Assembly: GCA_964487045.1 (NCBI GenBank) | Contig: CAZAOT010000002.1 | Coordinates: 53,305 to 117,304 of the forward strand | Direction of reading: 5' to 3' | DNA length: 64,000 bases | Source: an uncultured Candidatus Saccharibacteria bacterium | Lineage (GTDB): Bacteria; Patescibacteriota; UBA1384; DTJR01 | Part shown: one piece after another, positions 7,747 to 52,083 of the stretch | How positions within the stretch are numbered: the stretch's first letter is position 1 | Layout of the letters: each line of letters starts with the position of its first letter | Translations under genes and position numbers: made by a program | The notes under the pieces: generated by a model | The model's database searches: none | The model's input: only the letters and a program-made list of their open reading frames with translations | What the model was told of the DNA's origin: nothing

Positions 7747-7756
7747 GTGCGATCAC

Positions 7757-8029: not shown

Positions 8030-8037
8030 GAGACACC

Positions 8038-12809: not shown

Positions 12810-12902
12810 ATATCGACTATAAAGAATTAGAAAAGTTTTTGTATAACGCCAATTTAGTCTTTGAGCAAAATTTTATTGGTGGGATAATTGTGGGGAGGAA
12901 TA

Positions 12903-14483: not shown

Positions 14484-14484
14484 A

Positions 14485-15042
14485 ATGAAGAACCCCGAAA
14501 ATTACGATGCAATTCGAATTGATGGAATAATTTGGAAGATACAAGGATCTGAAGTTATTCCAATTTGCCCAAAAGATAATTTACAAATGTACCCAGTTAA
14601 TAATTCTCGTTTTGGATGGGAAGATGATATTTATAATCGTAGTAATATTCTAAAATGCCTAGATGATCATTTTGTCGAGATGAAAAGGGGCTATGGTGAT
14701 GAGATACGCTATATCACTGACCGTTTAAAGGCCAGGGATCTTAAAAATATTAAAATTTTAAACCTTGATGATGAAGCTATGCCGATTGCAAAAGCAAATT
14801 CGAAAACAACCGATAATAAATATTCGGCAACTATTCAAGTAATGGAATCAAAGCGTGGATTGCAGGTTGTCGTTTACGCTGGAAAAAAGGGTGGCAAAAA
14901 TACACAAATTTTCGTAGAGCCGGAAGCGAAAAAGATGAGTTTTGATCATAATGATGCACACCCCAGTGAAATCTTTACTGAAATTACTGCGAAATTTCAA
15001 GACGGTACTTCCAGCACAATTAAAAAAAATGACAAAAATTAA
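14485..15042 (+). CDS. Hypothetical protein embedded between hsdM and hsdS
   Basis: 185-aa ORF starting 1 nt after the hsdM stop and overlapping the hsdS start by 12 nt; no recognisable motif. Confidence 0.5.
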   Translation: MKNPENYDAIRIDGIIWKIQGSEVIPICPKDNLQMYPVNNSRFGWEDDIYNRSNILKCLDDHFVEMKRGYGDEIRYITDRLKARDLKNIKILNLDDEAMPIAKANSKTTDNKYSATIQVMESKRGLQVVVYAGKKGGKNTQIFVEPEAKKMSFDHNDAHPSEIFTEITAKFQDGTSSTIKKNDKN

Positions 15043-16255: not shown

Positions 16256-16515
16256 AACCCGAAAACTATGAGCAGCTAAATACGGTTCATTTAGATGACC
16301 TTGATCGTCTGTTGAATTCATGTGGCATAAATTCAGAATACAAACAAAAAAAGGTTAAGTGCAAATTTTGCAAAAACACAATCGACAGTAATAATGTTTA
16401 TTCTGTATTCAAGGATTCAGGTTCTTACAAATTAATATGTGACCGACCAGAATGTATTCAGTCACTACTACAACTTGTTAATGAGCGGAAGAAAAAGGAG
16501 TGCGGTAATGAATGA
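16252..16515 (+). CDS. Small Cys-rich (zinc-ribbon-like) protein embedded in the RM operon
   Basis: 87 aa, CKFCKN...CDRPEC. The ATG overlaps the hsdS stop (ATGA) and the ORF overlaps the next ORF by 8 nt. Confidence 0.4.
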   Translation: MKPENYEQLNTVHLDDLDRLLNSCGINSEYKQKKVKCKFCKNTIDSNNVYSVFKDSGSYKLICDRPECIQSLLQLVNERKKKECGNE

Positions 16516-17617
16516 TGCTTGGAAGTATTTATCGGGATTTGGTTCAGGAACATTTATTACAATAGTTATTGCGTATATCCTTTTTAAGAACCCCGAGGTC
16601 GTCAAGAAATGGGGTGCAATATTCTACGATCTTCTATCAAGAATATTTGATAAGTATAAATATAAATCCGAAAAGTATAGAATCGAAACAAAGCTCAATA
16701 GCTTCGTTGATGATCTCTCTAGAGATTCCGACATCGATCCAACTAAAGTAAGGATTCAATGGGCGGCTAGAGAGGAGGATGAGAAATGTTTAGTTAATGA
16801 TAATGACGTAATTATTGTTATGCGCGATAGAGAACACAAACATAGAAACTTTGTTCACGCAGCATATTTTTTTACATCCAACATGCTGCTCTGGAGAACA
16901 AAAAGACACATTTCAAAAAAACAAGGGCAAGCGATCGATATATACACAGCAAAAAAAATCATAGAGAAAGACCCTGTTTCGCTAAGGATTTATTTAGAGA
17001 ATTATTTTCAGCCACTTCTTGAAGATGCTGACGTTAATAAGTTGGTAAAAAAATTCGTCGAAATTGATAAGTCGGGATTTTATACTAATATTCTTCTAAC
17101 TGAATTATCTTCCCTTGGTTATAAAACACTTTTGGACGCAAAGGACAGCGACATCGTAGTTGAGGCAAAACTTCTCATTGAATTTCTCTATAATTTTGCA
17201 AACCGCGAACTTGGTGATGAGCAAACTGAAGATACCTTCATCGGAAAATATTCTAGGTGCTCTATTAAGATTGTTTCTACAATTACACTCAGAATCCTCG
17301 ATCGAGTTGAGTCTCCAGCGAAAAGAATTCTCGACGCTTTTTCCAGAGGTCTAGAAAATGTGTACATTATTGGACCTTACGGTGAATATGGCAAGGTTTT
17401 TATTGACAAAGTAATAGATAAGGTAATTTCATCAAATGAAAATCTGGTAGTTTGTCAAAAAAGAAAATTTACTGGCTGTATTAAAAAGGATGGCGAGAAG
17501 ATTTCGATATTAACATATTTTGCTCATATTCAGAATCCTAAACAGATATCCTATTTAATTACTGATGATATGACAGAGAGAATTGAAAAATTTAAAACTG
17601 AGGCTGTTGAAAAATGA
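16508..17617 (+). CDS. Hypothetical ~370-aa protein with N-terminal TM helix, embedded between hsdS and hsdR
   Basis: GGAG RBS 8 nt upstream of the ATG at 16508. N-terminal hydrophobic helix (FGSGTFITIVIAYILF). No P-loop or known nuclease motif seen. The stop overlaps the hsdR ATG (ATGA). Confidence 0.5.
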   Translation: MNDAWKYLSGFGSGTFITIVIAYILFKNPEVVKKWGAIFYDLLSRIFDKYKYKSEKYRIETKLNSFVDDLSRDSDIDPTKVRIQWAAREEDEKCLVNDNDVIIVMRDREHKHRNFVHAAYFFTSNMLLWRTKRHISKKQGQAIDIYTAKKIIEKDPVSLRIYLENYFQPLLEDADVNKLVKKFVEIDKSGFYTNILLTELSSLGYKTLLDAKDSDIVVEAKLLIEFLYNFANRELGDEQTEDTFIGKYSRCSIKIVSTITLRILDRVESPAKRILDAFSRGLENVYIIGPYGEYGKVFIDKVIDKVISSNENLVVCQKRKFTGCIKKDGEKISILTYFAHIQNPKQISYLITDDMTERIEKFKTEAVEK

Positions 17618-20409
17618 CAACACAATCCGAATTACAACTTGAAAATACATTAGTCGAGCAAATGCAGCGGTTGGGGTTTGAGTCGATTACAATCGATGGC
17701 GTTGATGCATTGGTTGCAAATCTCAAAACTCAACTCGAAAAATTTAATCAAATAAAATTTTCCGATGCAGAGTTTGCGCAAATTTTGAATCATTTAAACA
17801 AAGGCGATCGATTCCAGAAAGCAAAGACTCTGCGCGACCGATTTATCGTTCGCCGAGATGATGGTGAGACATCGTTCATTCGATTCTTTAATATGGATCA
17901 GTGGTGCAAAAATGAGTACCAAGTTGCAAGGCAGATCACGCAAATTGGCAAATATGAAAACCGCTATGATGTAACTCTTTTGATCAATGGCTTGCCTTTA
18001 GTGCAGATTGAGCTAAAGCGCCGTGGAATGGAAATGAAAGAAGCGTTTAATCAAATCCAACGCTACCACAAACACTCGTTTACTGGAACATTATTTGAGT
18101 ATGTTCAGATTTTTGTTATCTCAAATGGCGTTAACACTAAATACTTTTCAAATAACCCAAACCAATCGTTCGAACAAACTTTTTTTTGGACCGATGAGAA
18201 GAATGAGAAGATAACTAGACTGGAAGATTTTGCCAAGTTATTTCTAGAAAAGTGTGCGGTATCCAAATTCATTGCCGAGTACATTGTACTCGCCGAATAC
18301 CATAAAATCCCATTGGTTTTGCGACCGTATCAGTACTACGCAGTAAAAGAAATTGAATCGCGAGTTAAGGAATCAAACAAAAACGGTTACATCTGGCATA
18401 CCACCGGCTCGGGGAAGACTTTGACATCATTTAAAGCCAGCCAAGTACTCTCAGGAATTCCAGAGGTAAAGAAAGTTTTGTTCGTAGTTGACCGCAAGGA
18501 TTTAGATATTCAAACGACCAAGGAATTCAATTCATTTTCCGACGGCTCGGTGGACGGAACCGATAACACTCGGCATTTAGTTAGCCAGCTAGAGGATAAA
18601 AACCGCAAGCTAATCGTTACAACGGTTCAGAAACTTGATATTGCCATTGGCCGAGAAAGTTATTTGAAAAAGCTGGAATATTTGAAAGATGAAAAAGTAG
18701 TTATCATTTTTGACGAATGTCACAGAGGTCAGTTCGGTCAGACGCATGCGAGAATTAAATCATTTTTTAAGCGCGCGCAACTTTTTGGTTTTACTGGCAC
18801 GCCGATTTTTGCTGAAAATAATGTTGGCGGAGTAACAACGGCCGATGTTTTCGATGAATGCTTGCATCGCTACATCATTACCAATGCGATTTCTGATAAT
18901 AATGTTCTGGGGTTTGCGGTTGAGTATGTAGGCAAATACAAACAAAAGGATAGCGATGTGGTTGATAAAGATATTTTTGCAGATAGTATGGTGGAGGGAA
19001 TAAATACTCGGGAAGTTTTGGAAAGTGATGCGCGGGTTGAAAAGATTGCGGAATATGTGTTGCAAGACTGGAAGCGAAAGACCAAAAATGGAAAGTTCAA
19101 TGCATTCTTTGCAGTTTCGAGTATTGAGATATTAAAGAAATACTACAAGATTTTATCTGCCAAGAAGCCAGATGATTTTAAGATTGCTACAATTTTTACA
19201 TATCAGGCCAACGAAGATGAAGTCATTGATTTGGACGTTGACGCATTTCCAGAGGAGGGCGAACCGGTCAATCAGCATTCGCGCGATTTCTTGGAGAGCT
19301 GTATTAAAGATTACAATGCATTATATTCGACTAACTTTTCAACTGACCGATTTTATGACTATTACCGAGATTTGCAGCAAAGAATTAAAAAGCGAGAAGT
19401 TGATTTAGTTTTGGTCGTAAATATCTTTTTGACTGGTTTTTATAGCCCTCGCTTAAATACTCTATATGTCGATAAAAACTTACGCTATCACGGGCTGATT
19501 CAGGCATATTCGCGAACAAATCGTTTGCTTGATTCCGATAAGCCGCATGGCAATATTGTTTCGTTTAGGAATTTGAAAGAAGCGACAGATAAGGCGCTGG
19601 CACTTTATGGCGACGAGAATGCAAAAGAAATTGTTTTCAAAAAGCCGTACAAGCAACAGAAAAAGGAATTTGAAGTAAAGCTTGTTGGACTCCGGGAGAA
19701 GGTGCCGACCGTTGAGTCGGTTGATGGACTAAAAAGCGAGGATGAGTTAGCTGAATTCGTTAAATCGTTTCGTGATCTACTTAGAGTTAAATCGTCGCTG
19801 GAGACATTTGCCGAATTTTCATTTGCTGATTTAGGTATTTCTGAACAAGAATTTTATGATTATCAAAGTAAATATTTGGATATATATGACGAAAGAAAAG
19901 AACATGGGCAAGGGCCTGAATTGATTCTTGATCAAATTGATTTTGAGTTAGAACTGACAATTAGAGATGTGATCAATTATGACTATATAATTATGCTGAT
20001 TGCTGGACTAAAGAATATAACTTCGGATCGATTGAGAGAAAAGAAGGCTGAGGATATTTTGCGAATGTTTGATCGAGATGTAAAGCTCAGAAAAAAGAAG
20101 GATCTAATAAAGAAATTCATTGAAGAAAATTTGCCAAAGATCGACAAGGCAGAGAGCGTTGAGAAAGCGTTTGGTGAATTTTGGGCAAACGAAAGATCGA
20201 AGGTTTTGCGAGATTTGGCAAGCGAAGAAAATATTCCGGTTGAAAATATCGAGGAGTTGGTAGGTGAATACTTATATACACAAAAATTACCGAAAGATCA
20301 GGAAGTTGCCGACATTCTGCCAGCAGGAACTAAGTTCTTAAAGCAGCAAGGCCTGATTGATCGAATTAAAGGTGTGATTGAGAAAATTGTAGATGTGTTT
20401 GAGTGGTAA
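17614..20409 (+). CDS. hsdR: Type I restriction enzyme R subunit (SF2 helicase/endonuclease)
   Basis: Walker A HTTGSGKTLT, DEAD-box-like FDECHRGQ, and 931 aa typical of HsdR. Confidence 0.9.
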   Translation: MTTQSELQLENTLVEQMQRLGFESITIDGVDALVANLKTQLEKFNQIKFSDAEFAQILNHLNKGDRFQKAKTLRDRFIVRRDDGETSFIRFFNMDQWCKNEYQVARQITQIGKYENRYDVTLLINGLPLVQIELKRRGMEMKEAFNQIQRYHKHSFTGTLFEYVQIFVISNGVNTKYFSNNPNQSFEQTFFWTDEKNEKITRLEDFAKLFLEKCAVSKFIAEYIVLAEYHKIPLVLRPYQYYAVKEIESRVKESNKNGYIWHTTGSGKTLTSFKASQVLSGIPEVKKVLFVVDRKDLDIQTTKEFNSFSDGSVDGTDNTRHLVSQLEDKNRKLIVTTVQKLDIAIGRESYLKKLEYLKDEKVVIIFDECHRGQFGQTHARIKSFFKRAQLFGFTGTPIFAENNVGGVTTADVFDECLHRYIITNAISDNNVLGFAVEYVGKYKQKDSDVVDKDIFADSMVEGINTREVLESDARVEKIAEYVLQDWKRKTKNGKFNAFFAVSSIEILKKYYKILSAKKPDDFKIATIFTYQANEDEVIDLDVDAFPEEGEPVNQHSRDFLESCIKDYNALYSTNFSTDRFYDYYRDLQQRIKKREVDLVLVVNIFLTGFYSPRLNTLYVDKNLRYHGLIQAYSRTNRLLDSDKPHGNIVSFRNLKEATDKALALYGDENAKEIVFKKPYKQQKKEFEVKLVGLREKVPTVESVDGLKSEDELAEFVKSFRDLLRVKSSLETFAEFSFADLGISEQEFYDYQSKYLDIYDERKEHGQGPELILDQIDFELELTIRDVINYDYIIMLIAGLKNITSDRLREKKAEDILRMFDRDVKLRKKKDLIKKFIEENLPKIDKAESVEKAFGEFWANERSKVLRDLASEENIPVENIEELVGEYLYTQKLPKDQEVADILPAGTKFLKQQGLIDRIKGVIEKIVDVFEW

Positions 20410-34398: not shown

Positions 34399-34774
34399 AA
34401 AAGGGGACAAGGTAGTCGAAAGTCTAACGAAAATTGTAAGTAAGGAAGATATCAAAAGTGGACTCTTAGTTGGACTTGGAGCTCTAACAGAAGCGCAGCT
34501 TATGGTTTACGACCTTGGGACAAAGTCGTATTCATCAAAGAATCTCTCGGGGACACTTGAGGTAGGCAACTTTACTTCGATTATCGCGAAGGACCCACAA
34601 GGTCAAGCACATATCCATCCTCATATAACCTTATGTGATAAGGATTTTAATACATACTGTGGGCATCTTAAGGAGGGGATAGTTGGTGCAACTCTAGAGA
34701 TAGTAATTTTTGAATCGACCCAAGATATAAAGCGATACGAGGATAGTGAGATTGGATTAAATTTGATAAAATAG
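34379..34774 (+). CDS. PPC (DUF296) domain protein
   Basis: ISLKKGDKVVESL...GLGALTEAQL...HIHPHITL pattern of PPC/DUF296. Confidence 0.55.
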   Translation: MKIISLKKGDKVVESLTKIVSKEDIKSGLLVGLGALTEAQLMVYDLGTKSYSSKNLSGTLEVGNFTSIIAKDPQGQAHIHPHITLCDKDFNTYCGHLKEGIVGATLEIVIFESTQDIKRYEDSEIGLNLIK

Positions 34775-34793
34775 AATTAACAAAGTTAAAAAA

Positions 34794-34866
34794 GCCCCAC
34801 TTCGCCCAGAAGGGCTTCGCGGGGTTTCCTGTTCTCCCAAGGAGGGAAACAGGAGCAAGGGGAAAT
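34794..34866 (+). terminator. Terminator hairpin followed by a second structured leader hairpin
   Basis: GCCC-AGAA-GGGC core within CCCCAC...GCGGGG plus TTT, then TCCTGTT...AACAGGA stem enclosing CTCC..GGAG. Confidence 0.5.
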
Positions 34867-35940
34867 ATGAAGGAGTTTTTTGCGAAATTGTTTGGTGAGA
34901 AAAAATATCGCAATGTATTTATCATTTGCGTTGTTCTGGCAATATTAATCGTAACAGGAGCAATTGCCGCGAAATACTATAATCAAAAACCGCAATATGC
35001 TGGTTCTAAAAATACAGGATTGCAAAAAGCTACTCAAAAGACTATTTGCCTGTTGGATGGGCAGGCTTATGATGCAGATAAAGCCACAAGGCATCCACTT
35101 GCTATAATCGTAGAAAACCATCCAGATGCTAGACCACAATCGGGTCTAATAGATGCTTCAATTGTGTATGAAGCAATAACCGAGGGTGGAATTACTAGAT
35201 TTTTAGCAATATTTGGGCCAACAGACACAAATGAAATTGGACCAATTAGAAGCGCAAGACTCTTTTTTATGGACTATCTTAAGGAGTATGACGCCTTTTT
35301 TGCACACGCTGGGGGAAATGAGGACGCACTTGCAAATATAGATAAGTACTCGATCAAAGATATACCTCATACCGAACCTTATTATAGAAGAGATTATAAA
35401 GGTAGAAGCGTCGCGAGCGAGCACACTTTATACTCATCTACCGAACAACTCTATGCTCTAGCTAAGGCTAGGGGATTCGATACAACTAAATCTGACTACT
35501 CTGCGATGAAATTTAAGGTAGATGGACCAGCCGAACCAACAGGCAAAGGTGTAGAGATTAATTTCTCATCTGAGAGCTATAAGGTTACATGGGCCTTCGA
35601 CACTGCTACAAATTCCTACTTAAGATCAATGGCAGGCGCTCCACATAAAGACAGAACTTCCAGCAACCAGATAACAGCGAAGAATATCGTCATACAAACA
35701 GTCGATAGAACCTACCAGCCGACCGGAAGCTACGGATCTTCGAACTATGTCTTTAAAAATATCGGTGAGGGAAATGCTTATGTACTAGAGGACGGCAAAA
35801 CAATTAAAGCAAAATGGAAGAAAGCTTCTCTAACATCAAGGACAAAGTTCTATGACGAATCAGGCGCAGAAATATCCTTTAATCCAGGTAAGACTTGGTA
35901 CGAGATAGTTCCACCTGAAGTGACTCCAAGCTTCATCTAA
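34867..35940 (+). CDS. DUF3048-family (YerB-like) secreted/lipoprotein-like protein
   Basis: N-terminal TM/signal; PLAIIVENHPDARPQSGL...VYEAITEGGITRFLAIF typical of DUF3048. Confidence 0.6.
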   Translation: MKEFFAKLFGEKKYRNVFIICVVLAILIVTGAIAAKYYNQKPQYAGSKNTGLQKATQKTICLLDGQAYDADKATRHPLAIIVENHPDARPQSGLIDASIVYEAITEGGITRFLAIFGPTDTNEIGPIRSARLFFMDYLKEYDAFFAHAGGNEDALANIDKYSIKDIPHTEPYYRRDYKGRSVASEHTLYSSTEQLYALAKARGFDTTKSDYSAMKFKVDGPAEPTGKGVEINFSSESYKVTWAFDTATNSYLRSMAGAPHKDRTSSNQITAKNIVIQTVDRTYQPTGSYGSSNYVFKNIGEGNAYVLEDGKTIKAKWKKASLTSRTKFYDESGAEISFNPGKTWYEIVPPEVTPSFI

Positions 35941-35955
35941 AAAAACAAGCGAATC

Positions 35956-35985
35956 GAAAAAGCCCCCTCGCGGGGGCTTTTTCTT
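35956..35985. terminator. Bidirectional terminator
   Basis: AAAAAGCCCCC-TCGC-GGGGGCTTTTT. Confidence 0.75.
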
Positions 35986-36013
35986 GCACAAACTTACTTT
36001 GCTGAAAAGTAAG

Positions 36014-36640
36014 TTAGATGCTGTTCATAACGCTTTTTACAAGTTCAACATAACTTCTAGAGTGATTATAGTTGAATAAAGCGCTATCTATGTCTCCTCT
36101 GTCAGCTCCACCAGCAGCTAACAAGTTAGCTCCGGCGAAAACAGAGTCTCTAAGAGAACAGATATCGTTTCCTTCGTTGGCGTAATGCCTAAACGTTGAT
36201 GGCATAAACTGCATCGGACCAGTAGCACCAGCATAAGATTTTTTACATCCGCCGGTAGACTTACCAGTTTCGACTTGGTGAACAGCTTCAATAAGCTTCC
36301 AGTCTATACCAAACTTGTTAGCAGCTTCCCTATAAAGGGTTCTTAACTGCTCAAGTGAATAATCAGCAGCAACCGGAGCACTAGAAGTTACCTCAGCAAC
36401 TTGTACTCTTTCGCGAGCAACAAGCTGTCTTTGTTCTGAAGCGTTAATTTTCTTTTGGGCTTCCGATAGGCCAATTACAAACTCAACGTTTGGCTTGGGC
36501 CTTTCGATTTTAAGGTTCTTGTTTACCGAGAGCATAATTTTCTTAGGCTCGGCGGCTTCGTCTTGCGAGCTTGCATGGAGCGGTTGTAAGGCTCCCCAAA
36601 CTAAGACGAGCATTGTTAGAGGAAGAATGTAATTCTTCAT
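36014..36640 (-). CDS. Secreted lytic transglycosylase (SLT-domain)
   Basis: Signal peptide; catalytic-Glu context EAVHQVETG and GATGPMQFMPSTF. Confidence 0.7.
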   Translation of the reverse strand: MKNYILPLTMLVLVWGALQPLHASSQDEAAEPKKIMLSVNKNLKIERPKPNVEFVIGLSEAQKKINASEQRQLVARERVQVAEVTSSAPVAADYSLEQLRTLYREAANKFGIDWKLIEAVHQVETGKSTGGCKKSYAGATGPMQFMPSTFRHYANEGNDICSLRDSVFAGANLLAAGGADRGDIDSALFNYNHSRSYVELVKSVMNSI

Positions 36641-37094
36641 TGAAATAAAAATCTTCCGATGTTTCGGAAGAAGGTTAGGATTATATCAGAAAATGATAAT
36701 TTGTCAAGCCCCAAGGGCATATTTATAGCTATTTTAGGCAAGTTTGAACCTGTTAAGTAGAAATGCTATAAAATTTGAACCTGTAAATATTGAGAAAAAT
36801 ACAAATTTTGGGGCATAAAAACTATTGACAATTTGCCCATTATATGGTAAGTTTACCCCTTGCTTGATTCGCCCAGCTTGAAAAAAGTATTGAGGGCAGA
36901 ATTCCAGCTGGGAATTGCGGAGAGTTGCTTCAAATTTTTAAATGAAGCAGTGCCCCTCCTTCCCTTTTCCTGGCTGGAATCCTGCCCTTTTATAAAACCC
37001 GAGGATAGCGCTTTAGCGCTACTCGAGTTCTAGGGCAATACGTTCCTTGACATAAGGCAACAACTCGGCGCAACCAGCGCCAAGGAGGAAAGAG

Positions 37095-38480
37095 ATGAGA
37101 AGCACGATTCGCATAGCGACCGTAGTGCTAGTGCTGATGTATCTGGCATGTTCGGCCGCGATGTCGTTCGGGATCCTCGAGGGGTTGGCAATCTTCTCGG
37201 CTCTGGCCGGGAAGGGCGGCAAGCCTGAGCAGGTCACCGTAACCAAGGGTGAGATTTCCATGACGGCTACGCCAGTCATGGCGATCCCGACTGGGTTCGG
37301 TTTCAAGCTCCAGTCAATGACGTTCAACGTAACGGCTGGGACCGGGCTCGCTCCAGACTTCTATCATCCGGTTTTTCCTGTCTTGAAGTGCCTGGCACCC
37401 GATGGCAACCCCATCATGCTGGTACCAATTGACTGGCAACCGAATGGGAAGCCACTCCAGAATCTCCTCGTCACCCTCGACAACGAGCCAATCACGAAGG
37501 CTGTAGATGCTCGTTCACTCGTGGAGAACGAGGGTGCTTGGCTGCGACGAGCGATCCGCGAGGCCAACCGCGACCTTGGACGACAGTATGAAGATTCGAG
37601 CAACGTGCCCGACACCTTCTTCGAACCGTTCATCGCTATGTCAAAAGATGTCAAGCACTCCTTGACGGCTGACAAGCGCCACAACTTCAACAGTCCCACT
37701 GGAAGCGTCAACATGATGCTGGTCTTCCCGATGGGCAACCTCTTCTCGCGCCCGCATTTCGTCGCCTGCAACCTCAAGCAACCCGGCAAGGGAGATAACA
37801 GCTACAACTGCTCTTTCCATTTCCGGGTGCTCGATGAGCCGGTTGAAGTGCCGGCACCCTTCGAGTCGATCGTGCCCATGAACATTGACGGAAAGCTCTC
37901 GCAGCAGCAGATCACTCAGCCTGCACAGCAGGCTTCTGCACCGTCAGCTCAGGTAGCGGGCACCGCGGATAATCGCACTCTCGGAAGCGCGCCCCAACCT
38001 CAGCAACCGCAGTATCAGGCTCCGGCGCCCCAGCAGCAGGCCCCTCAGTACCAGCCGCCTGCCCAGCAATCACAGCCGAGTATTGCGACACCGCCAACGA
38101 TCGACAAGGCTGCGCAGTTCATCCTGCGCCCCGGCGATCAAGCATGGTGGAAGCCGTGCTCATGGGAGCGTCCGAGCAATTGGACGCCGGGTGATCATTG
38201 CTCGGTGGTCCTGTTCTTTCTGGACAGGAGGTACAACCTCCTGCACAGCGGGAACCTCGATGAACGGGACGTGGAGTGGTGGATCAACGGCGATCGGCAG
38301 GACATGAACTTGCCGTCGCATAACTCGATCACCTTTCCCGATCACACCCCGTCGTGCGGTGTGATCTATCAGCGCATGCCGTCAAACAGCGACATTACGT
38401 TGCTGTTCCGCGGCAAGCGCTACGGCTTCAGCACGACTCAGGCGAATATACTCTGGCGACCGATCATGGTCGCCGAGTAA
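37095..38480 (+). CDS. Secreted hypothetical protein with Pro/Gln-rich repeat (high-GC island)
   Basis: Signal peptide; low-complexity PQPQQPQYQAPAPQQQAPQYQPPAQQ block; GC about 60%; SD AAGGAGG. Confidence 0.6.
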   Translation: MRSTIRIATVVLVLMYLACSAAMSFGILEGLAIFSALAGKGGKPEQVTVTKGEISMTATPVMAIPTGFGFKLQSMTFNVTAGTGLAPDFYHPVFPVLKCLAPDGNPIMLVPIDWQPNGKPLQNLLVTLDNEPITKAVDARSLVENEGAWLRRAIREANRDLGRQYEDSSNVPDTFFEPFIAMSKDVKHSLTADKRHNFNSPTGSVNMMLVFPMGNLFSRPHFVACNLKQPGKGDNSYNCSFHFRVLDEPVEVPAPFESIVPMNIDGKLSQQQITQPAQQASAPSAQVAGTADNRTLGSAPQPQQPQYQAPAPQQQAPQYQPPAQQSQPSIATPPTIDKAAQFILRPGDQAWWKPCSWERPSNWTPGDHCSVVLFFLDRRYNLLHSGNLDERDVEWWINGDRQDMNLPSHNSITFPDHTPSCGVIYQRMPSNSDITLLFRGKRYGFSTTQANILWRPIMVAE

Positions 38481-38511
38481 TCCGGCGAAAGCCAAGGAGG
38501 ATTGAGAGAAA

Positions 38512-39669
38512 ATGAAGACACTGATGCTTGTTGTACTGCTACTCACGGCCTCTCTGGGCTTCGCCCAGAGTGAGCCGAACTCGAGCACGCCGCCTGTGAC
38601 CGAGCAGGTCCAGGCGACCACGACGACTACGACAGCGACGGCTACGGCGACGAGTACAACGCCCGCGCCGACCGCAGTGACCACACAACCGGTAACGGTG
38701 ACATTCGACGTCACCGTCCCGATCAGCACCCCCTTGAAAGGGGGAGTTGCGAGTGGGCTAGTTGTCAACCGGACACGCCCGCTCACGAGAGCGGAGTCTG
38801 AGTTCCTCAAGACCGTTCCGAATGGCAAAGACTCGGACGGACAGAGCTACCGTGACCTGATCGAAGTCGCATTCCGATCCGGCATCGCCCACGCCGAGAC
38901 GGCGCCTAGCTACGGCACCGTCGACAACAATGGTGTCGTATACGACTACTCGTATTACTGCCGGCTCGTTCAGCCGGCGGATGCGAGTAAGCCCGTCACC
39001 GGCAGGGTCGAAGACACCTTACACGGGACCGCGACTGGGACGATCAATGTCCCGGTCATCACCGTCAAGGGCGCAGATGGCGCTCCCGGCAGGCCCGGCG
39101 AGACGGTGTACGTCCAGCCTGCGCCGGCTCCGCAGCCTGTCTGCCAGCAGCAGGCCCCGGCGCAGTACTGCCCGCCCCCGCCTCCGCCCCAGCGCGTGCT
39201 GTTCTACACAGTACCGAAGGACCCGTATGGCTCTCCGGTGGTCGCCCAGAACAATGGGTGCAACCAGCAGAGTGCCTACATCCCACAGTACAACGCGTGG
39301 GATCGGCTTGGGCAGGTGCTTCTTCCGTTCGCACTCAAGCCTGAGCCCAACAATTGGAGCTGGTCCACCGTGATCAGCAATGGGAGTTCGTCCAACTCCA
39401 ACGCCACCAACAACAACTCCAACACCGCCTACGGCGGAGCGGGAGGAGCAGGTGGGCAAGGAGGTAGCTCCTGGTCGAATAGCCAGGGCGGCAACGCCTG
39501 GCAGAATCAGGGCCAGGGGATGATGCAGGGTCAGTGGACCCTGAACGACATCACCAACACACTCAACAATATAAATGATTGGCTGAACGCCAATCAGAAC
39601 ACCCTCAACGGTGGCGATCAGACCACCGGAGTGGGGGTGACAACGAATACCGGGGTCGCCGTGCACTAG
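38512..39669 (+). CDS. Secreted hypothetical protein with poly-Thr linker, Pro/Gln-rich and Gly/Asn/Ser-rich segments, and a C-terminal TLNN..W..NTLNGG.QTT module
   Basis: Signal peptide (LTASLGFAQSEP); SD AAGGAGG; GC about 62%; C-terminal 45 aa homologous to aa 67-103 of the adjacent LPXTG protein. Confidence 0.6.
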   Translation: MKTLMLVVLLLTASLGFAQSEPNSSTPPVTEQVQATTTTTTATATATSTTPAPTAVTTQPVTVTFDVTVPISTPLKGGVASGLVVNRTRPLTRAESEFLKTVPNGKDSDGQSYRDLIEVAFRSGIAHAETAPSYGTVDNNGVVYDYSYYCRLVQPADASKPVTGRVEDTLHGTATGTINVPVITVKGADGAPGRPGETVYVQPAPAPQPVCQQQAPAQYCPPPPPPQRVLFYTVPKDPYGSPVVAQNNGCNQQSAYIPQYNAWDRLGQVLLPFALKPEPNNWSWSTVISNGSSSNSNATNNNSNTAYGGAGGAGGQGGSSWSNSQGGNAWQNQGQGMMQGQWTLNDITNTLNNINDWLNANQNTLNGGDQTTGVGVTTNTGVAVH

Positions 39670-39699
39670 TTGCACATACGACCCCCACGACCTCATCAC

Positions 39700-39733
39700 T
39701 TGGAGCGGCGGGACTAAACTCCCGCCGCTCCAA
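39700..39733. terminator. Perfect 14-bp-stem hairpin at the 3' edge of the high-GC island
   Basis: TTGGAGCGGCGGGA-CTAAAC-TCCCGCCGCTCCAA. Confidence 0.7.
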
Positions 39734-39871
39734 TAGACTTTTCTAAATTTCACACCATTGACTTTTTCTTCAGAATTTGCTTCAATTGACCACAAATAAG
39801 CAATATCCAAGAAGCAGTCAATGCTTTAGAAAAATAATTAGTTCCCCGAGAATGTGGGGGAAGGGAGATAT

Positions 39872-40723
39872 ATGAAAAAAGGATATACAATCCTTTTAGG
39901 AGCAGCTGTTCTGACCCTTGTCGGCGGGACAGTAACGTTTGCAACTTCTGCAGACGAGATTATTAATGGTGTCTTCGCTGAGACCGGGATTGAGCAAAAT
40001 CAAACCCAGTGGCAGTGGCAAGATCAGGAGCAATTTCAGGCTCAGATCCAAGAATCCATTAATAATAACGAGAATACACTCAACAATACGAATGAGTGGA
40101 CAAATACTAATACCAACACTCTAAATGGTGGGAATCAAACCACCAACGTTGGTATAGTAAATAACACCGCTGTCGCAGTAGACAATGGCGGTGGATCTGG
40201 ATCAAGTGATGACAACGGCGGAGCCGCTGCATCAACTGGTGGAGCCGTGTCAGTAGGTAGCGACGAAAATGGAAATAGCGGAGTTGCTGTTTCTGGAAAC
40301 GCTGCTGCTGCAGCTGGTAATGCCGCTGCTACCGGAACAGGTGCCGCACAAAATGGCGGAACAGGTGGTCAGCAAGCAACAACTGGCGTAGGAGTCGCAG
40401 CTGGAGAAAATGCAGCTGCTTCATCTGCTTCACAAACTGGAACAAACAACGGCTCAAGCGCTGCTGCCTCAACTGGCAACAGCTCAGCCGCTGCTTCAAC
40501 CGGATCAAATGGAACTTCAGCTACAACCACTTCAGGTGGACAAAAAGTAGCTCTAGCTCAGCCAGAGCAAAAAGTTGCTCAGGCTGTGAAAAGTTCTGGA
40601 ACCTTGCCAAAGACAGGTATTCCAGCAGCCGTTCCAGCACTAGGCTCGCTTGCAATTGGAGCAATATCTACAGTAGCATTAGCTGCTCGAAGAAAGTTTC
40701 AGTTCATTAAAGAAAACCTATAA
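39872..40723 (+). CDS. LPXTG-anchored surface protein (sortase substrate), Ala/Gly/Ser-rich
   Basis: Signal peptide; C-terminal LPKTG, then hydrophobic stretch and ARRKF tail; GGGAGA RBS. Confidence 0.7.
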   Translation: MKKGYTILLGAAVLTLVGGTVTFATSADEIINGVFAETGIEQNQTQWQWQDQEQFQAQIQESINNNENTLNNTNEWTNTNTNTLNGGNQTTNVGIVNNTAVAVDNGGGSGSSDDNGGAAASTGGAVSVGSDENGNSGVAVSGNAAAAAGNAAATGTGAAQNGGTGGQQATTGVGVAAGENAAASSASQTGTNNGSSAAASTGNSSAAASTGSNGTSATTTSGGQKVALAQPEQKVAQAVKSSGTLPKTGIPAAVPALGSLAIGAISTVALAARRKFQFIKENL

Positions 40724-47057: not shown

Positions 47058-49517
47058 ATGAATTCTGATTTTTTCTACACCTACCAGGTTTATTTTTGGG
47101 TTGGAATAGTACTACTCGTTGGTATAGTTATTTATTTTTTGTATAAGCTGTTTCTAAAAAGTGAACTTTCAAAAAGAGCAAATGATCTTGTAATGATCGA
47201 GGTTAGGCTGCCAAAAAAATACGAGATCGAGTCTTACGAACATCAGAAAAATATATCCGAGATAGAGGCGATTGCCGATCAGTTCTTCTCGTCCTTGGCG
47301 TCACTATACGAAACAAAGATATCGGGCCTATTGTCCCAACCTGTAATTTCGTTTGAGTATGTTGCTAGAGATAAAGAAATTATCTTTTTTATCGGTGTTC
47401 CAAGGACTCTGCAGAGCTTGATGGAAAAACAGATTCAGAGCTTCTATCCTGAGGCTAATATCGAGCCAAATGGTGATTTTAGAATTTTCGAGGAAGGACT
47501 CGATGTCGCTTACGGAATTATCAAAACCTCTAGAAGTTACATTTATCCTATAAAAACATATGCGGAGCTAGAATACGACACTATTCAGAACATCACCAAC
47601 TCACTTTCTAAAATTGGCGAAGATGCTAGAGCTTCAATCCAAATCCTAGTTCGACCGACAAACCAAGGTTGGAGGACGCATATCGAATGGGCGATTAGAA
47701 AAATTCAGGAGGGCAGGGGAGTTCCGCTTGGAATTTCTTGGTATAATAAAATTTCTTATTTTATAGGCCAGTTCTTCCAAAGTTCAACCACCACTGATCA
47801 GGATCTTGCTAAGAGAAATACTCCGCTTCAAGAAGAAACGATAAAATTACTAACAAAGAAAAGCGCTAAGACCGGCTTTGACGTGCAGGTTAGAATCGTC
47901 GCGCTTGCCAAAACAAAACAAGAAGCAGAGGTGATCCTTCGAAATATTTATTCAGGCTTTACTCAATTTAACTCTCCAGATAGAAATACTTTGAAGATGT
48001 TTAGAAATTATGACAAAAAAGCATTCTTAACACATTTTATACTCAGATCCTTTATTCCATTTGATAAAATCATCCTTAACTCCGAAGAGCTAGCAACACT
48101 TTATCACTTCCCATCTGAGCACATAGACACGCCAGGAATTAGGTGGTTTATGGCCAAACGTTCTTCGGCACCAGCAACTTTGCCGAAAGAGGGGATTGTC
48201 CTTGGAAAAAATGTCTATCGAGGTGACGAAAATCTAATTAGATTGAAAGAAAACGATAGACGAAGACATCTTTATGCGATTGGAATGACCGGCACCGGTA
48301 AGTCTACATTTTTTGAAAGTTTGATACTTCAGGACATAAAAAACGGCAAGGGCGTCGCAGTATTTGATCCTCATGGAGAACTAGTTGAAAAAATTCTAAG
48401 CAAGATTCCCAAAGAAAGAGCTGAAGACGTTATTTATTTCGATCCCTCTGATGCCACAAGACCAATGGGAGTGAACCTCTTAGAGTGGAAGACTAAAGAC
48501 CAGAAGGACTTTTTGGTTCAGGAAGCTATTCAAATATTCTATAAACTCTTTGATCCAAACGGCCAAGGATTTGTCGGCCCTCAGTTTGAACACTGGATGA
48601 GAAATGCAGCACTGACCGTTATGGAATATCCTGATGGGGGAACGCTACTCGAAATACCTAAATTATTTTCTGATGATAGCTTTCGCGAGCAAAGAGTGGC
48701 ATATCTTAAAGATGATGTAGTAAAATCATTCTGGACGCAGCAAATGGCTAAAACTGCTGATTTTCACAAATCTGAGATGTTTAATTACTTCATCTCTAAA
48801 TTTGGTAGATTCATGACAAATATCACAATGCGTAATATCATTGGCCAGCCAAAATCTGCATTTGACTTCCGTGAGGTGATGGATAGCAAGAAGATTCTAC
48901 TTATCAAACTCGCTAAGGGAGAAATTGGGGAAATCAATTCAAATCTACTAGGAATGATTTTTGTCGCTAGACTGTTTACTGCTGCGCTCTCAAGGACCGA
49001 CATAGACGAAGCTGACAGACAAGACTTCTATCTATACGTTGATGAATTTCAAAACTTTGCAACTGATACATTTGCTTCGATTCTTTCAGAAGCGAGAAAA
49101 TTCAGACTTAATCTCAATATCACCAACCAATACATTGCTCAGATTCCAGAAAACATTCGCGATGCAATAATCGGTAACGTAGGCACTTTGGTCGCGTTTA
49201 GGATCGGTGTGCCCGATGCTGAATTTATGGAGAAAGAATTTGAACCTGTCGCCAACAAAACAGATTTAAACAACATCGATGCGTTTAATGCCTATATTAA
49301 ACTCTTAGTAGATAATGCTCCGACAAGACCTTTTTCAATGCAGACAATAAAAGATCCAACCGAGGAGAACACAAAACTCGGCTCGGCTATCAGAGAGCTT
49401 TCTCGGTTGAAGTACGGACGGGATGTAAGTATAGTAGAGTTAGAAATTCAAGACAGAATCAAGACTTATGAAGCACCTAGCCAAACTCAAGACATTACTA
49501 GAGAGACAGGGAGATAA
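47058..49517 (+). CDS. Membrane-anchored P-loop ATPase of the FtsK/HerA/VirD4 (T4CP-like) superfamily, paralog 1
   Basis: N-terminal TM helix; Walker A RRRHLYAIGMTGTGKST; DPHGEL motif; Walker B FYLYVDEFQNFAT; NITNQYIAQ. About 400-aa N-terminal domain paralogous to the next gene. Confidence 0.6.
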   Translation: MNSDFFYTYQVYFWVGIVLLVGIVIYFLYKLFLKSELSKRANDLVMIEVRLPKKYEIESYEHQKNISEIEAIADQFFSSLASLYETKISGLLSQPVISFEYVARDKEIIFFIGVPRTLQSLMEKQIQSFYPEANIEPNGDFRIFEEGLDVAYGIIKTSRSYIYPIKTYAELEYDTIQNITNSLSKIGEDARASIQILVRPTNQGWRTHIEWAIRKIQEGRGVPLGISWYNKISYFIGQFFQSSTTTDQDLAKRNTPLQEETIKLLTKKSAKTGFDVQVRIVALAKTKQEAEVILRNIYSGFTQFNSPDRNTLKMFRNYDKKAFLTHFILRSFIPFDKIILNSEELATLYHFPSEHIDTPGIRWFMAKRSSAPATLPKEGIVLGKNVYRGDENLIRLKENDRRRHLYAIGMTGTGKSTFFESLILQDIKNGKGVAVFDPHGELVEKILSKIPKERAEDVIYFDPSDATRPMGVNLLEWKTKDQKDFLVQEAIQIFYKLFDPNGQGFVGPQFEHWMRNAALTVMEYPDGGTLLEIPKLFSDDSFREQRVAYLKDDVVKSFWTQQMAKTADFHKSEMFNYFISKFGRFMTNITMRNIIGQPKSAFDFREVMDSKKILLIKLAKGEIGEINSNLLGMIFVARLFTAALSRTDIDEADRQDFYLYVDEFQNFATDTFASILSEARKFRLNLNITNQYIAQIPENIRDAIIGNVGTLVAFRIGVPDAEFMEKEFEPVANKTDLNNIDAFNAYIKLLVDNAPTRPFSMQTIKDPTEENTKLGSAIRELSRLKYGRDVSIVELEIQDRIKTYEAPSQTQDITRETGR

Positions 49518-49518
49518 A

Positions 49519-52083
49519 ATGCCGGAAAATACTTATAACTTCAATGATGACAGAGTCTTGTGTAGACTGCTGATTCCGAAGAATAATGAAAAAACACCTG
49601 CTGCCGCGGAGTTGTTTTTCGCTGCACTTCATGGCGTATATACCGCTTCTAGCCGAATCCAACCGATAATGAGCTTTGAAATGGTCTCGATCAATAAATA
49701 TATCCAGTTTTACTTCGAGGTACCAAAATATTTAAAAGAATTTGTTGAGGGGCAATTATATGCTCAATACCCAAATGTCGAGATATCTGTAGCGGAAGAT
49801 TATGTCAAACATGCCCCAGATAAATTCTCGGTAGGAGCAGAATTATTAACTACTAAAGAAGATGTTTTTCCAATTAAAACCTTCCAAAGTTTCGAGGCAG
49901 ATCCGCTATCAGGAATCACCAGTATCCTCAGCCAGTTAGCTACAAACGAAGAATTATGGGTGCAAATCTGTATCGCTCCTGTTAAGGATACCTGGCAGAA
50001 AAAATCAGTTTCTCATGTAAACGCACTTAAGGCCGGAAGGAATCCGGGAGAATCATTATTTAAAAGTATTGTTCGTGGTGCCTGGGGAGTAGCTCCAACA
50101 ATCGCCGGAGAGAAACCCGCTTCAAGCTCTGTAGACATATCAGGACCGATGGCAGCGGCTATCAAAGGAATTGAAGAAAAGTGTACGAAACTTGGTTTCG
50201 AGACAAAAATAAGGGTAGTCTCAACCTCAACCGACCAGACAATTTCTAGCCAAAGACTTGCCGGAGTCGTGGGAGCTTTCAAGCAGTTCAACTCCACAAA
50301 CATGAACGGATTTATGCAGGGACCAGCCTTAACTGGCCAAACAATTATCGAAGCATACAAAAAGAGAGCAATCGGATTCAAGCCTTATATTCTAAACACT
50401 GAAGAGCTTGCATCAATTTTTCACTTGCCGGGCGAATCGGTCGTAACTCCATCGATGAATTACGCCGGAAGTAAGAAAGGGGAGCCGCCACTCAACTTGC
50501 CCATAATTGGCGAGGATGCTGAGGATGACTCAGAAATGTCTGTACTTGGAAAAACGAACTTCCGAGGAACAGAGAAGAAATTTGGTATAAAAATCAAAGA
50601 TAGGGCTCTTCACATGTACGCGATTGGAAAAACCGGTACAGGTAAATCCACACTCCTTAAAAATATGATCATCGACGATATTCACAAGGGAAGGGGAGTT
50701 GCAGTAGTTGATCCTCACGGAGACCTTGTAGCCGATGTCATGGATCATATTCCAGAGTCGAGAATTAACGACGTTATCTTCTTTTCTCCTGCCGATAGAG
50801 ATTTTCCAGTAGGCTTTAACTTATTTGAAAAAGTTGACCCCGAATATAAAAACATAGTTGCTTCTGGTATTGTCGGAGTTTTCAAAAAAATATTCGGAGA
50901 ATCATGGGGACCAAGACTCGAATATATCTTGAGAAATGTTGTGCTTGGACTTTTAGATTATCCAGAGGCAACTTTGCTACAAGTTCTCAAAGTTTTAACT
51001 GATACAAAGTTTCGCCGACAGGTAGTTGAGCAGATTTCAGACCCAATCATTAAAGATTTTTTCGTAAACGAATTTGAGCGCTATGATCAGAAGTTCAGAA
51101 CAGAAGCGGTCGCGCCAATTCAAAACAAAGTAGGACAATTCTTAAGTTCATCCACAATTCGCAACATTGTCGGCCAGAGCTCAAACTCGATTGACATGAG
51201 AAAAGCGATGGATGAAAGTAAAATTGTTTTGGTAGACCTGTCGATAGGAAGAATTGGCGAAGACAATAGCGCACTACTCGGATCATTGATTATTACTAAA
51301 ATTCAGATGGCTGCGATGAGTCGAGCTGAAATGAAAAGAGAAGAGCGAACCCCTTTCTACCTATACGTAGACGAGTTTCAGAACTTTGCAACTGATTCTT
51401 TTGCAGTAATCCTTTCAGAGGCCAGAAAATATGGATTGTCACTTATGGTAACGAACCAGTATATCGCTCAGATGCCTGAGACAGTCGCAAACGCGGTTTT
51501 CGGAAACGTAGGCTCGATTATCACTTTCAGAGTAGGAGCAGGGGATGCTGAGTTTTTGAATCGCGAATTTGTACCCGTCTTTGAACCATCAGACCTCGTG
51601 AATATCGATAACTACGCCATTTATCTAAAAATGGCAATTAATGGTGTGACTAGCCAACCTTTCTCAGCAAAGACAGTTTTGTCGAACTATGAGCCGACGG
51701 GCTTCAAGGCACAAATTATCGAACAATCAAGAATAAAGTATTCGAGACCAAGAGAAGAGGTTGAGAAGGTAATTGCAGAAACAACATTAGGTTCATCAAG
51801 CAATCCGAACAACCTAAGTCCAAATGAGCTTATAGGCAAGGATAAAGCAGAAAATACCCCGGAAAATATAGCTTCCCCGGCCGTCGAAGTAGGGGAGGGG
51901 GAGTCGAATTTTGAGGAAAATAAGGAAGAAATTAAACCAGATTTACCGGAAGAACTAGCTAACGCCAAGAAGGGGGAAGATTATGACACAAATAATTGGT
52001 ATTTTTTGACCCGCACTAATTTTCGTAAACTTACCGGTAGGGAAGAACCGGAAGATGAAGTAAAAGAAGCTTCTGAAGAATAA
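49519..52083 (+). CDS. P-loop ATPase of the FtsK/HerA/VirD4 (T4CP-like) superfamily, paralog 2, acidic C-terminal tail
   Basis: GGGAGA RBS before the ATG at 49519. Walker A HMYAIGKTGTGKST; DPHGDL; FYLYVDEFQNFAT; MVTNQYIAQ. C-terminal E/P-rich ~110 aa. Confidence 0.6.
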   Translation: MPENTYNFNDDRVLCRLLIPKNNEKTPAAAELFFAALHGVYTASSRIQPIMSFEMVSINKYIQFYFEVPKYLKEFVEGQLYAQYPNVEISVAEDYVKHAPDKFSVGAELLTTKEDVFPIKTFQSFEADPLSGITSILSQLATNEELWVQICIAPVKDTWQKKSVSHVNALKAGRNPGESLFKSIVRGAWGVAPTIAGEKPASSSVDISGPMAAAIKGIEEKCTKLGFETKIRVVSTSTDQTISSQRLAGVVGAFKQFNSTNMNGFMQGPALTGQTIIEAYKKRAIGFKPYILNTEELASIFHLPGESVVTPSMNYAGSKKGEPPLNLPIIGEDAEDDSEMSVLGKTNFRGTEKKFGIKIKDRALHMYAIGKTGTGKSTLLKNMIIDDIHKGRGVAVVDPHGDLVADVMDHIPESRINDVIFFSPADRDFPVGFNLFEKVDPEYKNIVASGIVGVFKKIFGESWGPRLEYILRNVVLGLLDYPEATLLQVLKVLTDTKFRRQVVEQISDPIIKDFFVNEFERYDQKFRTEAVAPIQNKVGQFLSSSTIRNIVGQSSNSIDMRKAMDESKIVLVDLSIGRIGEDNSALLGSLIITKIQMAAMSRAEMKREERTPFYLYVDEFQNFATDSFAVILSEARKYGLSLMVTNQYIAQMPETVANAVFGNVGSIITFRVGAGDAEFLNREFVPVFEPSDLVNIDNYAIYLKMAINGVTSQPFSAKTVLSNYEPTGFKAQIIEQSRIKYSRPREEVEKVIAETTLGSSSNPNNLSPNELIGKDKAENTPENIASPAVEVGEGESNFEENKEEIKPDLPEELANAKKGEDYDTNNWYFLTRTNFRKLTGREEPEDEVKEASEE

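Follow-up and report, generated by a model that had tools for sequence, protein, structure and literature searches.

Two kinds of bacterial surface locus are among the closest known to the one described here. The vls cassettes of Borrelia have a GC content of 49% in a genome of 28.6% GC, a deviation that holds across species and is linked with gene conversion (PMC11499132), and the stem-loops in the 5′ untranslated regions (UTRs) of S-layer genes make the mRNA more stable and leave its ribosome-binding site accessible (PMC10221546). We analyzed a stretch of 64,000 nucleotides (contig CAZAOT010000002.1, positions 53,305–117,304, assembly GCA_964487045.1; hereafter the window) from an uncultured Candidatus Saccharibacteria bacterium, in which a GC-rich island carries two open reading frames (ORFs), designated ORF1 (gene1) and ORF2 (gene2), behind a structured 5′ leader RNA. 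Atypical GC content is routinely taken as the footprint of horizontal transfer, and the original prediction, made from the letters of the window, had proposed that a high-GC donor, for instance an actinobacterial host, was the source of the island. For this island such a reading is wrong: its 20-point GC excess is inherited, coincides with one putative transcription unit, and has stayed at equilibrium through saturating divergence in several uncultured lineages. The best reading of the sequence comparisons is that the island represents a vertically inherited transcription unit of a Berkelbacteria-like lineage of the candidate phyla radiation (CPR) and not a foreign insert.

The island (37000–39735) has a GC content of 0.55–0.67 against a background of approximately 0.39. 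In 300-nt windows, the GC content was 0.33–0.45 up to 36900, 0.51 at 36900–37199, and 0.55–0.67 across 37050–39749, and it fell back to 0.46 at 39600–39899 and to 0.43 beyond 39750. The 1-kb windows across 37001–40000 had values of 0.57, 0.61, and 0.56, and the sole 1-kb bin elsewhere in the window that reached 0.50 was that at 8001–9000. The predicted jump from below 40% to approximately 60% GC was thereby borne out. The total GC contents of ORF1 and ORF2 are 0.58 and 0.62, and their GC contents at third codon positions (GC3) are 0.725 and 0.762, that is to say, 10.7 and 11.7 standard deviations above the background of 0.346 ± 0.035 in 50 other ORFs of the window, a strongly deviant codon usage. 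The non-coding parts within the unit are also raised (0.46–0.61 vs 0.31–0.32 just outside): the distal leader has a GC content of 0.53 compared with 0.31 just upstream of the promoter, and the value drops to 0.32 right after the terminal hairpin.

The shift is even with respect to C and G. Third-position A, C, G, and T occur at frequencies of 0.10, 0.38, 0.36, and 0.15 in the island and of 0.32, 0.18, 0.18, and 0.32 in the background, and every codon family shifts evenly to both its C- and G-ending codons; among the enriched codons are CGG (0.19 vs 0.02), CTG (0.33 vs 0.08), and CCG (0.51 vs 0.20). The coding strand has 41 runs of 3 or more G and 45 of 3 or more C, its GC skew is approximately −0.05, and A exceeds T. 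The GC contents at the first and second codon positions (GC1 and GC2) are raised too, which shifts the amino-acid usage. Amino-acid composition as the sole cause of the island was ruled out, GC3 being the most shifted of the codon positions.

An abrupt break in composition accompanied by long antisense ORFs could also be produced by an artefact, namely, an assembly chimera, a contaminant, or a true gene in antisense (dual coding). We regard this explanation as having a negligible probability. Three independent Logan assemblies (SRR11845623, SRR11845625, and SRR11845626) are 100% identical to the window and one of them spans both borders (34590–40147), so an assembly chimera, against which the prediction had cautioned, is excluded; moreover, assemblies of different organisms in NCBI, JGI, ENA, and Logan share this architecture. 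As there are zero differences between the window and the three Logan assemblies, no mutation spectrum could be derived. The antisense ORFs examined (39019–39810 of the window and a 346-aa ORF of the related locus L004, described below) both lie in the fully complementary codon frame, which stays open because the island makes little use of TTA, CTA, and TCA as sense codons (0.02, 0.05, and 0.11 of their codon families). For these two, the earlier suggestion that the antisense ORFs are GC artefacts was correct. Finally, amino acids are conserved while synonymous sites are saturated (described below), which indicates selection on the plus-strand proteins.

Used as a query, ORF2 hit a collagen-repeat protein and, at 46% identity over 181 aa, a protein from a metagenome-assembled genome with the label Dehalococcoidales, and an exhaustive profile search of 1.84 billion representatives revealed that the ORF2 family comprises 8 true clusters only. 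Three loci have the gene order of the window, that is, DUF3048, the lytic transglycosylase gene SLT on the minus strand, gene1, gene2, an LPXTG protein (ORF3), and prfB. They are L004 (GCA_028715925.1, JAQUQU010000046.1); L013, recovered by a metagenome scan; and L007, a Berkelbacteria genome recovered by scanning species-representative genomes with the SLT neighbour. The flank proteins of these loci are 59–76% identical to those of the window, ORF2 is 43–48% identical across the syntenic loci, and ORF1 is mostly unalignable. In L004, where the gene1 counterpart has 425 aa, the GC content jumps from 0.38–0.47 to 0.60–0.66 and the GC3 values are 0.79 and 0.78 in the cassette vs 0.38–0.46 in the SLT, ORF3, and prfB flanks. 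L007 and L013 show the same gene order and the same GC jump. L004 is labelled “Dehalococcoidales bacterium” at NCBI; its proteins are 63–73% identical to those of the window, it is syntenic, and it matches the Berkelbacteria genome L007, and the label is on these grounds probably a binning or classification error. L013 differs from the window in 2 details: it has an extra 187-aa gene of normal GC content (7413–7976) between SLT and the cassette promoter, and tandem approximately 11-nt GGATTAACGAG-like repeats at 8020–8100.

Members of the family were also found as GC islands in other contexts, in which the cassette lies between Dus and CLIPPER/DUF11 surface proteins (L006, L014, and L015), and in L019. 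Across 11 loci in three genomic contexts, the GC3 is 0.55–0.79 in the cassette genes and 0.30–0.46 in the flanks, and wherever flanks are visible the ORF2-family gene lies in a 2–2.7 kb GC island of a genome with a GC content of 0.35–0.47. The contigs of the family (L010–L012, L016–L020, and L001–L003) mostly measure only 1.5–3.9 kb and stop close to the borders of the island. The locus seems to break up assemblies, and the ORF2 family and its leader may be under-sampled.

A recent horizontal transfer of the 2.9-kb segment from a high-GC donor, for example the actinobacterial host of an epibiont, would account for a composition and codon usage that resemble those of a genome of approximately 60% GC, for an ORF1 without relatives, and for proteins rich in Thr, Pro, and Gly. 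Yet this origin is very improbable, for five reasons: (i) the cassette and its leader occupy the same site in three diverged relatives (L004, L013, and L007) and occur in 2 other conserved contexts, and a related genome lacking the cassette at an intact site was not seen; (ii) the hits of ORF2 are confined to low-GC CPR genomes with similar GC islands, no homologue having been found in any high-GC organism, and viral contigs scanned for the ORF2 domain and the leader core gave no hits; (iii) the window has no tRNA genes, there is no integrase, transposase, or reverse transcriptase among its ORFs of at least 120 aa, and the only direct repeats flanking the island are chance AT-rich 12-mers; (iv) ORF2 has a motif in common with the native ORF3 (described below); and (v) the synonymous sites are saturated, and GC is still high in each lineage.

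The last point was derived from fourfold degenerate sites. At conserved residues of ORF2 orthologues, the third-base identity at these sites is 0.30–0.42, compared with 0.29–0.31 expected from composition; since the observed values are near the composition-only expectation, the sites are saturated. The GC content of these sites (GC4) in ORF2 is nevertheless 0.66–0.82 in each lineage, with 0.25–0.56 in the flanking genes, and the composition is therefore maintained and not a relic. Judged from these sequences, the composition of a segment transferred once, in the distant past, would by now have ameliorated, and repeated transfers, each of which would need to land at the same site behind the same leader, are strongly disfavoured. 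We conclude with high confidence that the island is not a recent transfer, and the proposed actinobacterial or other high-GC donor was not supported; the confinement of the hits to related low-GC genomes with like GC islands is the outcome that the prediction had itself named as refuting it. The GC3 of 0.55–0.79 across lineages is a stationary property, and some force confined to the unit holds it.

Near the 5′ end of the unit lies a structured leader RNA (36882–37003, plus strand) of approximately 120 nt, which folds into a long three-helix hairpin of 37 pairs (RNAalifold) with a folding z-score of −5.3. The invariant core AGUGCCCCUCCUUCCCUUUU (36949–36968) contains the anti-Shine–Dalgarno-like CCUCCUU; no position of this 20-nt core, AGTGCCCCTCCTTCCCTTTT, varies among the 4 syntenic loci. 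The original prediction had placed palindromes at the island border. Both are present and bound the island, but the first, AATTCCAGCTGGGAATT (36900–36916), is part of the 5′ arm of the main helix of the leader and not an insertion scar. In L004, L013, and L007 the conservation of the leader exceeds 90%, far above that of the neighbouring proteins, and compensatory changes are present. Our covariance model of the leader (R1) scores 116–131 bits in the sense and 30–39 bits in the antisense orientation; this gap and the invariant G–U pairs point to an RNA and not a DNA palindrome. In L006, L014, L015, and L019, R1 recognizes versions of the leader that have diverged and carry a large central insertion ahead of the cassettes; a truncated leader stands at the end of L011, and the leader lies upstream of gene1 in each of the 8 loci with a visible 5′ end, in three genomic contexts. 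In an alignment of only 7 sequences, made to the model itself, pairing extends to 87% of cells and changes on both sides are seen in 19 pairs, values that none of 500 shuffles reached, with 34–54% of cells paired in slid controls. Rfam has no family for the leader, the matches being limited to sub-threshold miRNA hairpin models (29 bits vs a threshold of 53.5). We designate the leader a new candidate cis-regulatory RNA motif that, in the genomes compared, appears specific to CPR bacteria.

The leader is preceded by a putative σ70-type promoter (36825–36853, plus strand), composed of TTGACA (36825–36830), a 17-nt spacer, and the extended −10 element TGgTAAGTT with its hexamer at 36848–36853. 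The arrangement ATTGACA-17/18-TGnTAnnnT is also found upstream of the leader in L004, L013, and L007; a scan for strict consensus promoters did not call the operon promoter. The distal leader (37005–37088, plus strand) contains the hairpins TAGCGCTTTAGCGCTA (37005–37020) and GGCGCAACCAGCGCC (37067–37081) and the Shine–Dalgarno sequence AAGGAGG of ORF1 (37082–37088), and a GGCGCAA...AGCGCC hairpin right before the Shine–Dalgarno sequence recurs in L013. ORF2 has its own AAGGAGG (38494–38500, plus strand) in a context, GCCAAGGAGGA, that is nearly identical to that of ORF1. The CCUCCUU of the leader core is exactly complementary to the AAGGAGG that precedes each of the two genes. In the predicted ground states of all 4 syntenic leaders the long hairpin is closed, part of CCUCCUU is paired with GGAGAG, and the Shine–Dalgarno sequence of gene1 is 46–74% unpaired; the alternative duplex between anti-Shine–Dalgarno and Shine–Dalgarno sequences has a predicted energy of −11.6 to −14.8 kcal/mol. 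At the other end of the unit, the predicted hairpin with a perfect 14-bp stem was confirmed at 39700–39733 (stem arms 39700–39713 and 39720–39733, 6-nt loop, plus strand). A GC-rich hairpin lies directly 3′ of the gene2 stop codon in all 4 syntenic loci, and those of the window and L013 have the common stem GGAGCGGCGGG/CCCGCCGCTCC.

ORF1 (37095–38480, plus strand; 461 aa, GC3 0.73) includes an N-terminal hydrophobic helix, a β-rich N-domain, a Pro/Gln-rich linker (approximately residues 270–335), and a C-terminal domain with a WW.PC motif. The single-sequence AlphaFold2 (AF2) model of ORF1 has a predicted local distance difference test score (pLDDT) of 37 and is unusable as a whole; its long hydrophobic helix spans residues 2–38 and could act as a signal anchor. 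In L004, L013, L007, and L014 the position of ORF1 is taken by proteins of the same architecture, and the detectable similarity to the L013 counterpart is confined to the C-terminal motif (E = 1e-4). A single-sequence search of 5.8 billion proteins found no relative of ORF1 outside its own population, a profile of 5 sequences recovered nothing beyond ORF1 and one known relative, and no Pfam, NCBIfam, or PHROG family matched it.

ORF2 (38512–39669, plus strand; 385 aa, GC3 0.76) consists of a putative Sec-type signal peptide, a poly-Thr/Ala tract, the conserved domain of the family, a Pro-rich tract, a Gly/Asn/Ser-rich tract, and a C-terminal Asn-rich helix. As read from the sequence, its N-terminus is an n-h-c signal, MKTLMLVVLLLTASLGFA|QS, with the AxA-like end GFA|QS. 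Both plus-strand proteins are as the prediction had described them, with putative signal peptides and poly-Thr, Pro/Gln-rich, and Gly/Asn/Ser-rich tracts. The conserved domain (38677–39114, plus strand; residues 56–201) has the core motif RPLT..E..F...P...D..GQ...(Y)G.....Y.Y.CRL..PA.A and 22 invariant columns in the family alignment; AF2 modelled residues 81–155 with a pLDDT of 80–96, and in this model it is a small helical domain of a new kind. ORF2 had no match in Pfam, NCBIfam, or PHROG, and a PDB sequence profile search found nothing. The only hits in the family searches were collagen-repeat matches to phage tail fibres, from gene2 of L007. True collagen repeats occur in that gene and in the family members P0004, P0006, and P0009; window ORF2 gave no Pfam hit to the collagen Gly-X-Y (GXY) run PF01391 and has only GADGAPGRPGET, approximately four GXY triplets.

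The two island genes are followed by ORF3 (39872–40723, plus strand), an LPXTG protein that lies outside the GC-rich unit and has native codon use (GC3 0.31). It comprises a signal peptide, an Asn/Gln-rich segment shared with ORF2 (40016–40180), an Ala/Gly/Ser spacer, LPKTG (40604–40618), a hydrophobic stretch, and RRK; its C-terminus, LPKTG-IPAAVPALGSLAIGAISTVALAA-RRK, has the features of a sortase signal. ORF3 has a TTGACT promoter region of its own at approximately 39749–39776, 3′ of the terminator-like hairpin, and orthologues at the same position in L004, L013, and L007. We prefer the start codon ATG 39872 over GTG 39854 because the orthologues begin with MNKAYTIL or MKKATIL. A GC bump of approximately 0.55 at 40200–40650 within ORF3 is wholly due to Ala/Gly-rich coding (GC1 and GC2 approximately 0.56); as the GC3 is only 0.31, its cause differs from that of the island.

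The C-terminal Asn/Gln-rich segment of ORF2 (39499–39663, plus strand; approximately 55 aa, WQNQGQG...NTLNGGDQTTGVGVTTNTGVAV) is homologous to residues 48–103 of ORF3. The local alignment of the ORF2 tail with ORF3 scores 170, compared with 47 ± 8 for shuffled tails, and tblastx maps 39499–39663 to 40016–40180 (E = 2e-17); AF2 forms a helix in the tail (residues 344–365, pLDDT 71–82). The homology is present in all 4 syntenic genomes with z-scores of 7–16, and L007 has its own matched variant of the motif, which scores 122 within the genome and 40–75 across genomes. The 2 copies differ sharply in composition at identical residues, with a GC3 of 0.81 in the ORF2 copy and 0.41 in the ORF3 copy of the window and of 0.77–0.87 in gene2 and 0.41–0.52 in ORF3 over the four genomes. 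Whatever raises the GC content appears from these sequences to stop at the terminator-like hairpin, with the ORF3 copy acting as a built-in control.

These features suggest the following scheme. A σ70-type promoter would drive a leader of approximately 230 nt, approximately 120 nt of which form the conserved long hairpin; 2 translated genes would follow, and the GC-rich hairpin at 39700–39733 would end the unit. The leader may stabilize the mRNA and gate the access of ribosomes, its predicted closed form tying up the CCUCCUU that could pair with both AAGGAGG sites, and an off state would be possible if some factor opened the leader hairpin. Signal-peptide-like N-termini are visible in all cassette proteins, and the products of ORF1 and ORF2 are predicted to be exported through Sec. 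With its signal peptide, helical head of approximately 100 aa, and Pro-rich, collagen-like, or Gly-rich stalk, as seen across its family, ORF2 may form an extracellular fibre or coat and, in the syntenic context, may use its Asn-rich C-terminal segment to dock onto the homologous part of ORF3, which a sortase would link to the wall via LPKTG. ORF1, conserved in architecture alone, may be a membrane-anchored or secreted partner. The window also encodes a sortase (4915–5478, plus strand; PF04203, E = 6e-29) and SecDF and DsbA-like proteins. The coding content evolves very fast, with the leader, the Shine–Dalgarno sites, the position of the hairpin, and the genomic site remaining fixed. That the unit is a surface fibre or coat operon is a reasonably probable interpretation.

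As for the force that holds the GC content, we tentatively prefer, at well below even confidence, selection on the transcript for a structured, RNase-resistant, slowly decoded mRNA together with its leader, because the GC borders coincide with the inferred transcript and leader. A related proposal, possible but somewhat more doubtful, is a compositional regime of one unit, with a clade-wide GC3 of approximately 0.7–0.8 vs approximately 0.35 in the neighbours, produced by a mechanism tied to the leader, be it mRNA selection or targeted GC-biased repair or conversion. If true, a mechanism tied to a leader RNA would hold the GC content despite full synonymous turnover, with the same motif AT-rich a few hundred bases downstream.

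GC-biased gene conversion or repair at a recombination-prone hypervariable locus, in which alleles are frequently replaced between anchor points in the leader and on the terminator/ORF3 side, would raise the GC content without selection on the mRNA. It would fit cassette proteins that diverge extremely fast between fixed borders, a G/C shift that is uniform over codon families and accompanied by shifted amino acids, raised non-coding parts, and family contigs that fragment at the locus in many assemblies; a maintained high GC content tied to gene conversion has a precedent in Borrelia vls (PMC11499132). This cause is nonetheless rather unlikely: the rest of the 64-kb window has neither silent cassettes nor repeats of the island, there is no GC skew or asymmetry of G-runs, no variation is visible among the three runs of the same population, which are 100% identical, and the conversion tracts must end at the same borders in every lineage. 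In addition, to our knowledge, a rise in GC3 from 0.35 to 0.75 far exceeds what has been reported for recombination-linked GC3 in bacteria. A diversity-generating retroelement was likewise not found, as the window ORFs have no reverse-transcriptase domain and there is no internal repeat pair. Rare-codon gating, in which an operon written in genome-rare codons (CGG, CTG, CCG, GGG, and GCG) ties its translation to a few low-abundance tRNAs and to the growth state, would mirror the bldA/TTA control of Streptomyces and would agree with the strong enrichment of CGG, CTG, and CCG and with the conservation of the trait across lineages. It is improbable, in that the shift affects every codon family, including the two-fold C/T and A/G pairs that are read by the same tRNAs via wobble, and extends to untranslated parts.

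We consider a fast-evolving, lineage-specific surface operon with a maintained GC anomaly to be the best overall reading, held with slightly better than even confidence. Several points weigh against it or its parts: (i) the even codon shift and the amino-acid shift are no less compatible with a neutral GC-biased process than with mRNA selection; (ii) the excess mRNA folding of ORF1 and ORF2 (z of −2 to −3) was rejected as evidence of selection, because ORF3, with its native codons, shows the same (−2.8) and the source is low-complexity codon repeats; (iii) the transcription start (approximately 36860) and the terminator are inferred from sequence only, the T-run of the hairpin (AATAGACTTTTCT) is weak and interrupted, and the terminator scan did not call the hairpin; (iv) the shared motif is not significant in the Dus/CLIPPER context, making docking at best context-specific, and the motif is clearly different only in L007, so that co-variation rests on one contrast; (v) neither ORF1 nor ORF2 gains a function from structural or family searches; and (vi) L008 and L009 lack the island, and as synteny is broken there, they are not true empty sites.

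The neighbours of the island are housekeeping genes (lexA, prfB, pth, rplA, rplJ, rplL, tgt, and relA) and, divergently, the conserved SLT gene (36014–36640, minus strand), which lies outside the GC-rich unit. The SLT promoter (36707–36680, minus strand) matches the σ70 consensus at 12 of 12 positions, has an extended −10 TG, and stands back to back with the operon promoter region. A second, milder anomaly lies at 8038–9721 (minus strand), where two genes, for a dihydroorotate-dehydrogenase-like protein of 376 aa with a 4Fe-4S domain and for a guanylate-kinase-like protein of 186 aa, have a GC content and a GC3 of approximately 0.50 each vs a background GC3 of 0.35; these metabolic genes are a different kind of case, possibly a genuine transfer. 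A 126-aa signal-peptide ORF (62939–63319, plus strand; GC3 0.65) converges on Dus (63299–63973, minus strand). The site downstream of Dus holds a paralogous leader and GC-rich cassette in L006 and L014; R1 found no second copy of the leader in the 64-kb window, including beside this Dus and its GC-rich ORF. A complete type I restriction-modification system (hsdM, hsdS, and hsdR) and two tandem VirD4/TraG-like coupling ATPases lie at 12888–20409 and 47058–52083 and are not adjacent to the island.

The island is a natural system for what sets local base composition, be it mRNA selection, biased conversion, or tRNA gating. It adds a candidate cis-regulatory RNA motif and a secreted protein family that is probably located at the surface of an epibiont, in contact with hosts or phages. 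For curation, such loci fragment assemblies and may be mis-flagged as contamination or transfer.

Compared with known systems, the island resembles an acquired genomic island in its abrupt compositional deviation over a few kb and its accessory surface proteins. By contrast, it keeps its position across diverged relatives and lacks mobility genes as well as borders formed by tRNA genes or direct repeats; no donor lineage was found, and the composition shows no sign of amelioration despite the saturated synonymous sites. O-antigen and capsule operons with a JUMPstart/ops leader deviate to low GC, encode enzymes of sugar pathways, and carry a short DNA/RNA site for RfaH. Like them, the island is a hypervariable operon for a surface structure between conserved flanks, with a persistently atypical GC content and a conserved 5′ leader element; unlike them, it deviates to high GC, encodes the surface proteins themselves, and has a 120-nt hairpin as its leader. 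In curli, the cell-bound CsgB and the secreted CsgA have a homologous Asn/Gln-rich segment in common, through which templated docking is possible. The ORF3/ORF2 pair, as judged by sequence homology, would be comparable in its homologous Asn/Gln-rich segment, whereas it has no curlin repeat or Pfam match and AF2 makes the segment helical and not cross-β.

The collagen-like surface proteins Scl1/Scl2, BclA, and PclA are attached to the cell surface, as is proposed for ORF2, and like it combine a signal peptide and a globular head with a stalk of Pro/Gly-rich or (GXY)n type; window ORF2 differs from them in its approximately four GXY triplets, in the new family of its head, and in the LPXTG motif, which is on the separate ORF3. 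The S-layer units (for example, slpA of Lactobacillus; PMC10221546) have a strong promoter, a long 5′ UTR stem-loop, a surface protein with a signal peptide, and a strong terminator, of each of which the island has a putative counterpart. There is, however, no relation in sequence or fold to S-layer proteins, and the accounts of S-layer units consulted do not mention an anomalous GC3. The vls locus differs from the island in its coding-strand skew of approximately 0.5, its G-runs, its array of silent cassettes, and its segmental conversion, since the island has no skew, no cassettes in the 64 kb, and no within-population variation; conversely, a structured leader RNA is present in the island locus and not in vls. 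Nevertheless, both are surface loci with a GC content approximately 20 points above that of an AT-rich genome, and in both the anomaly, kept across species despite divergence, is read as maintained (PMC11499132).

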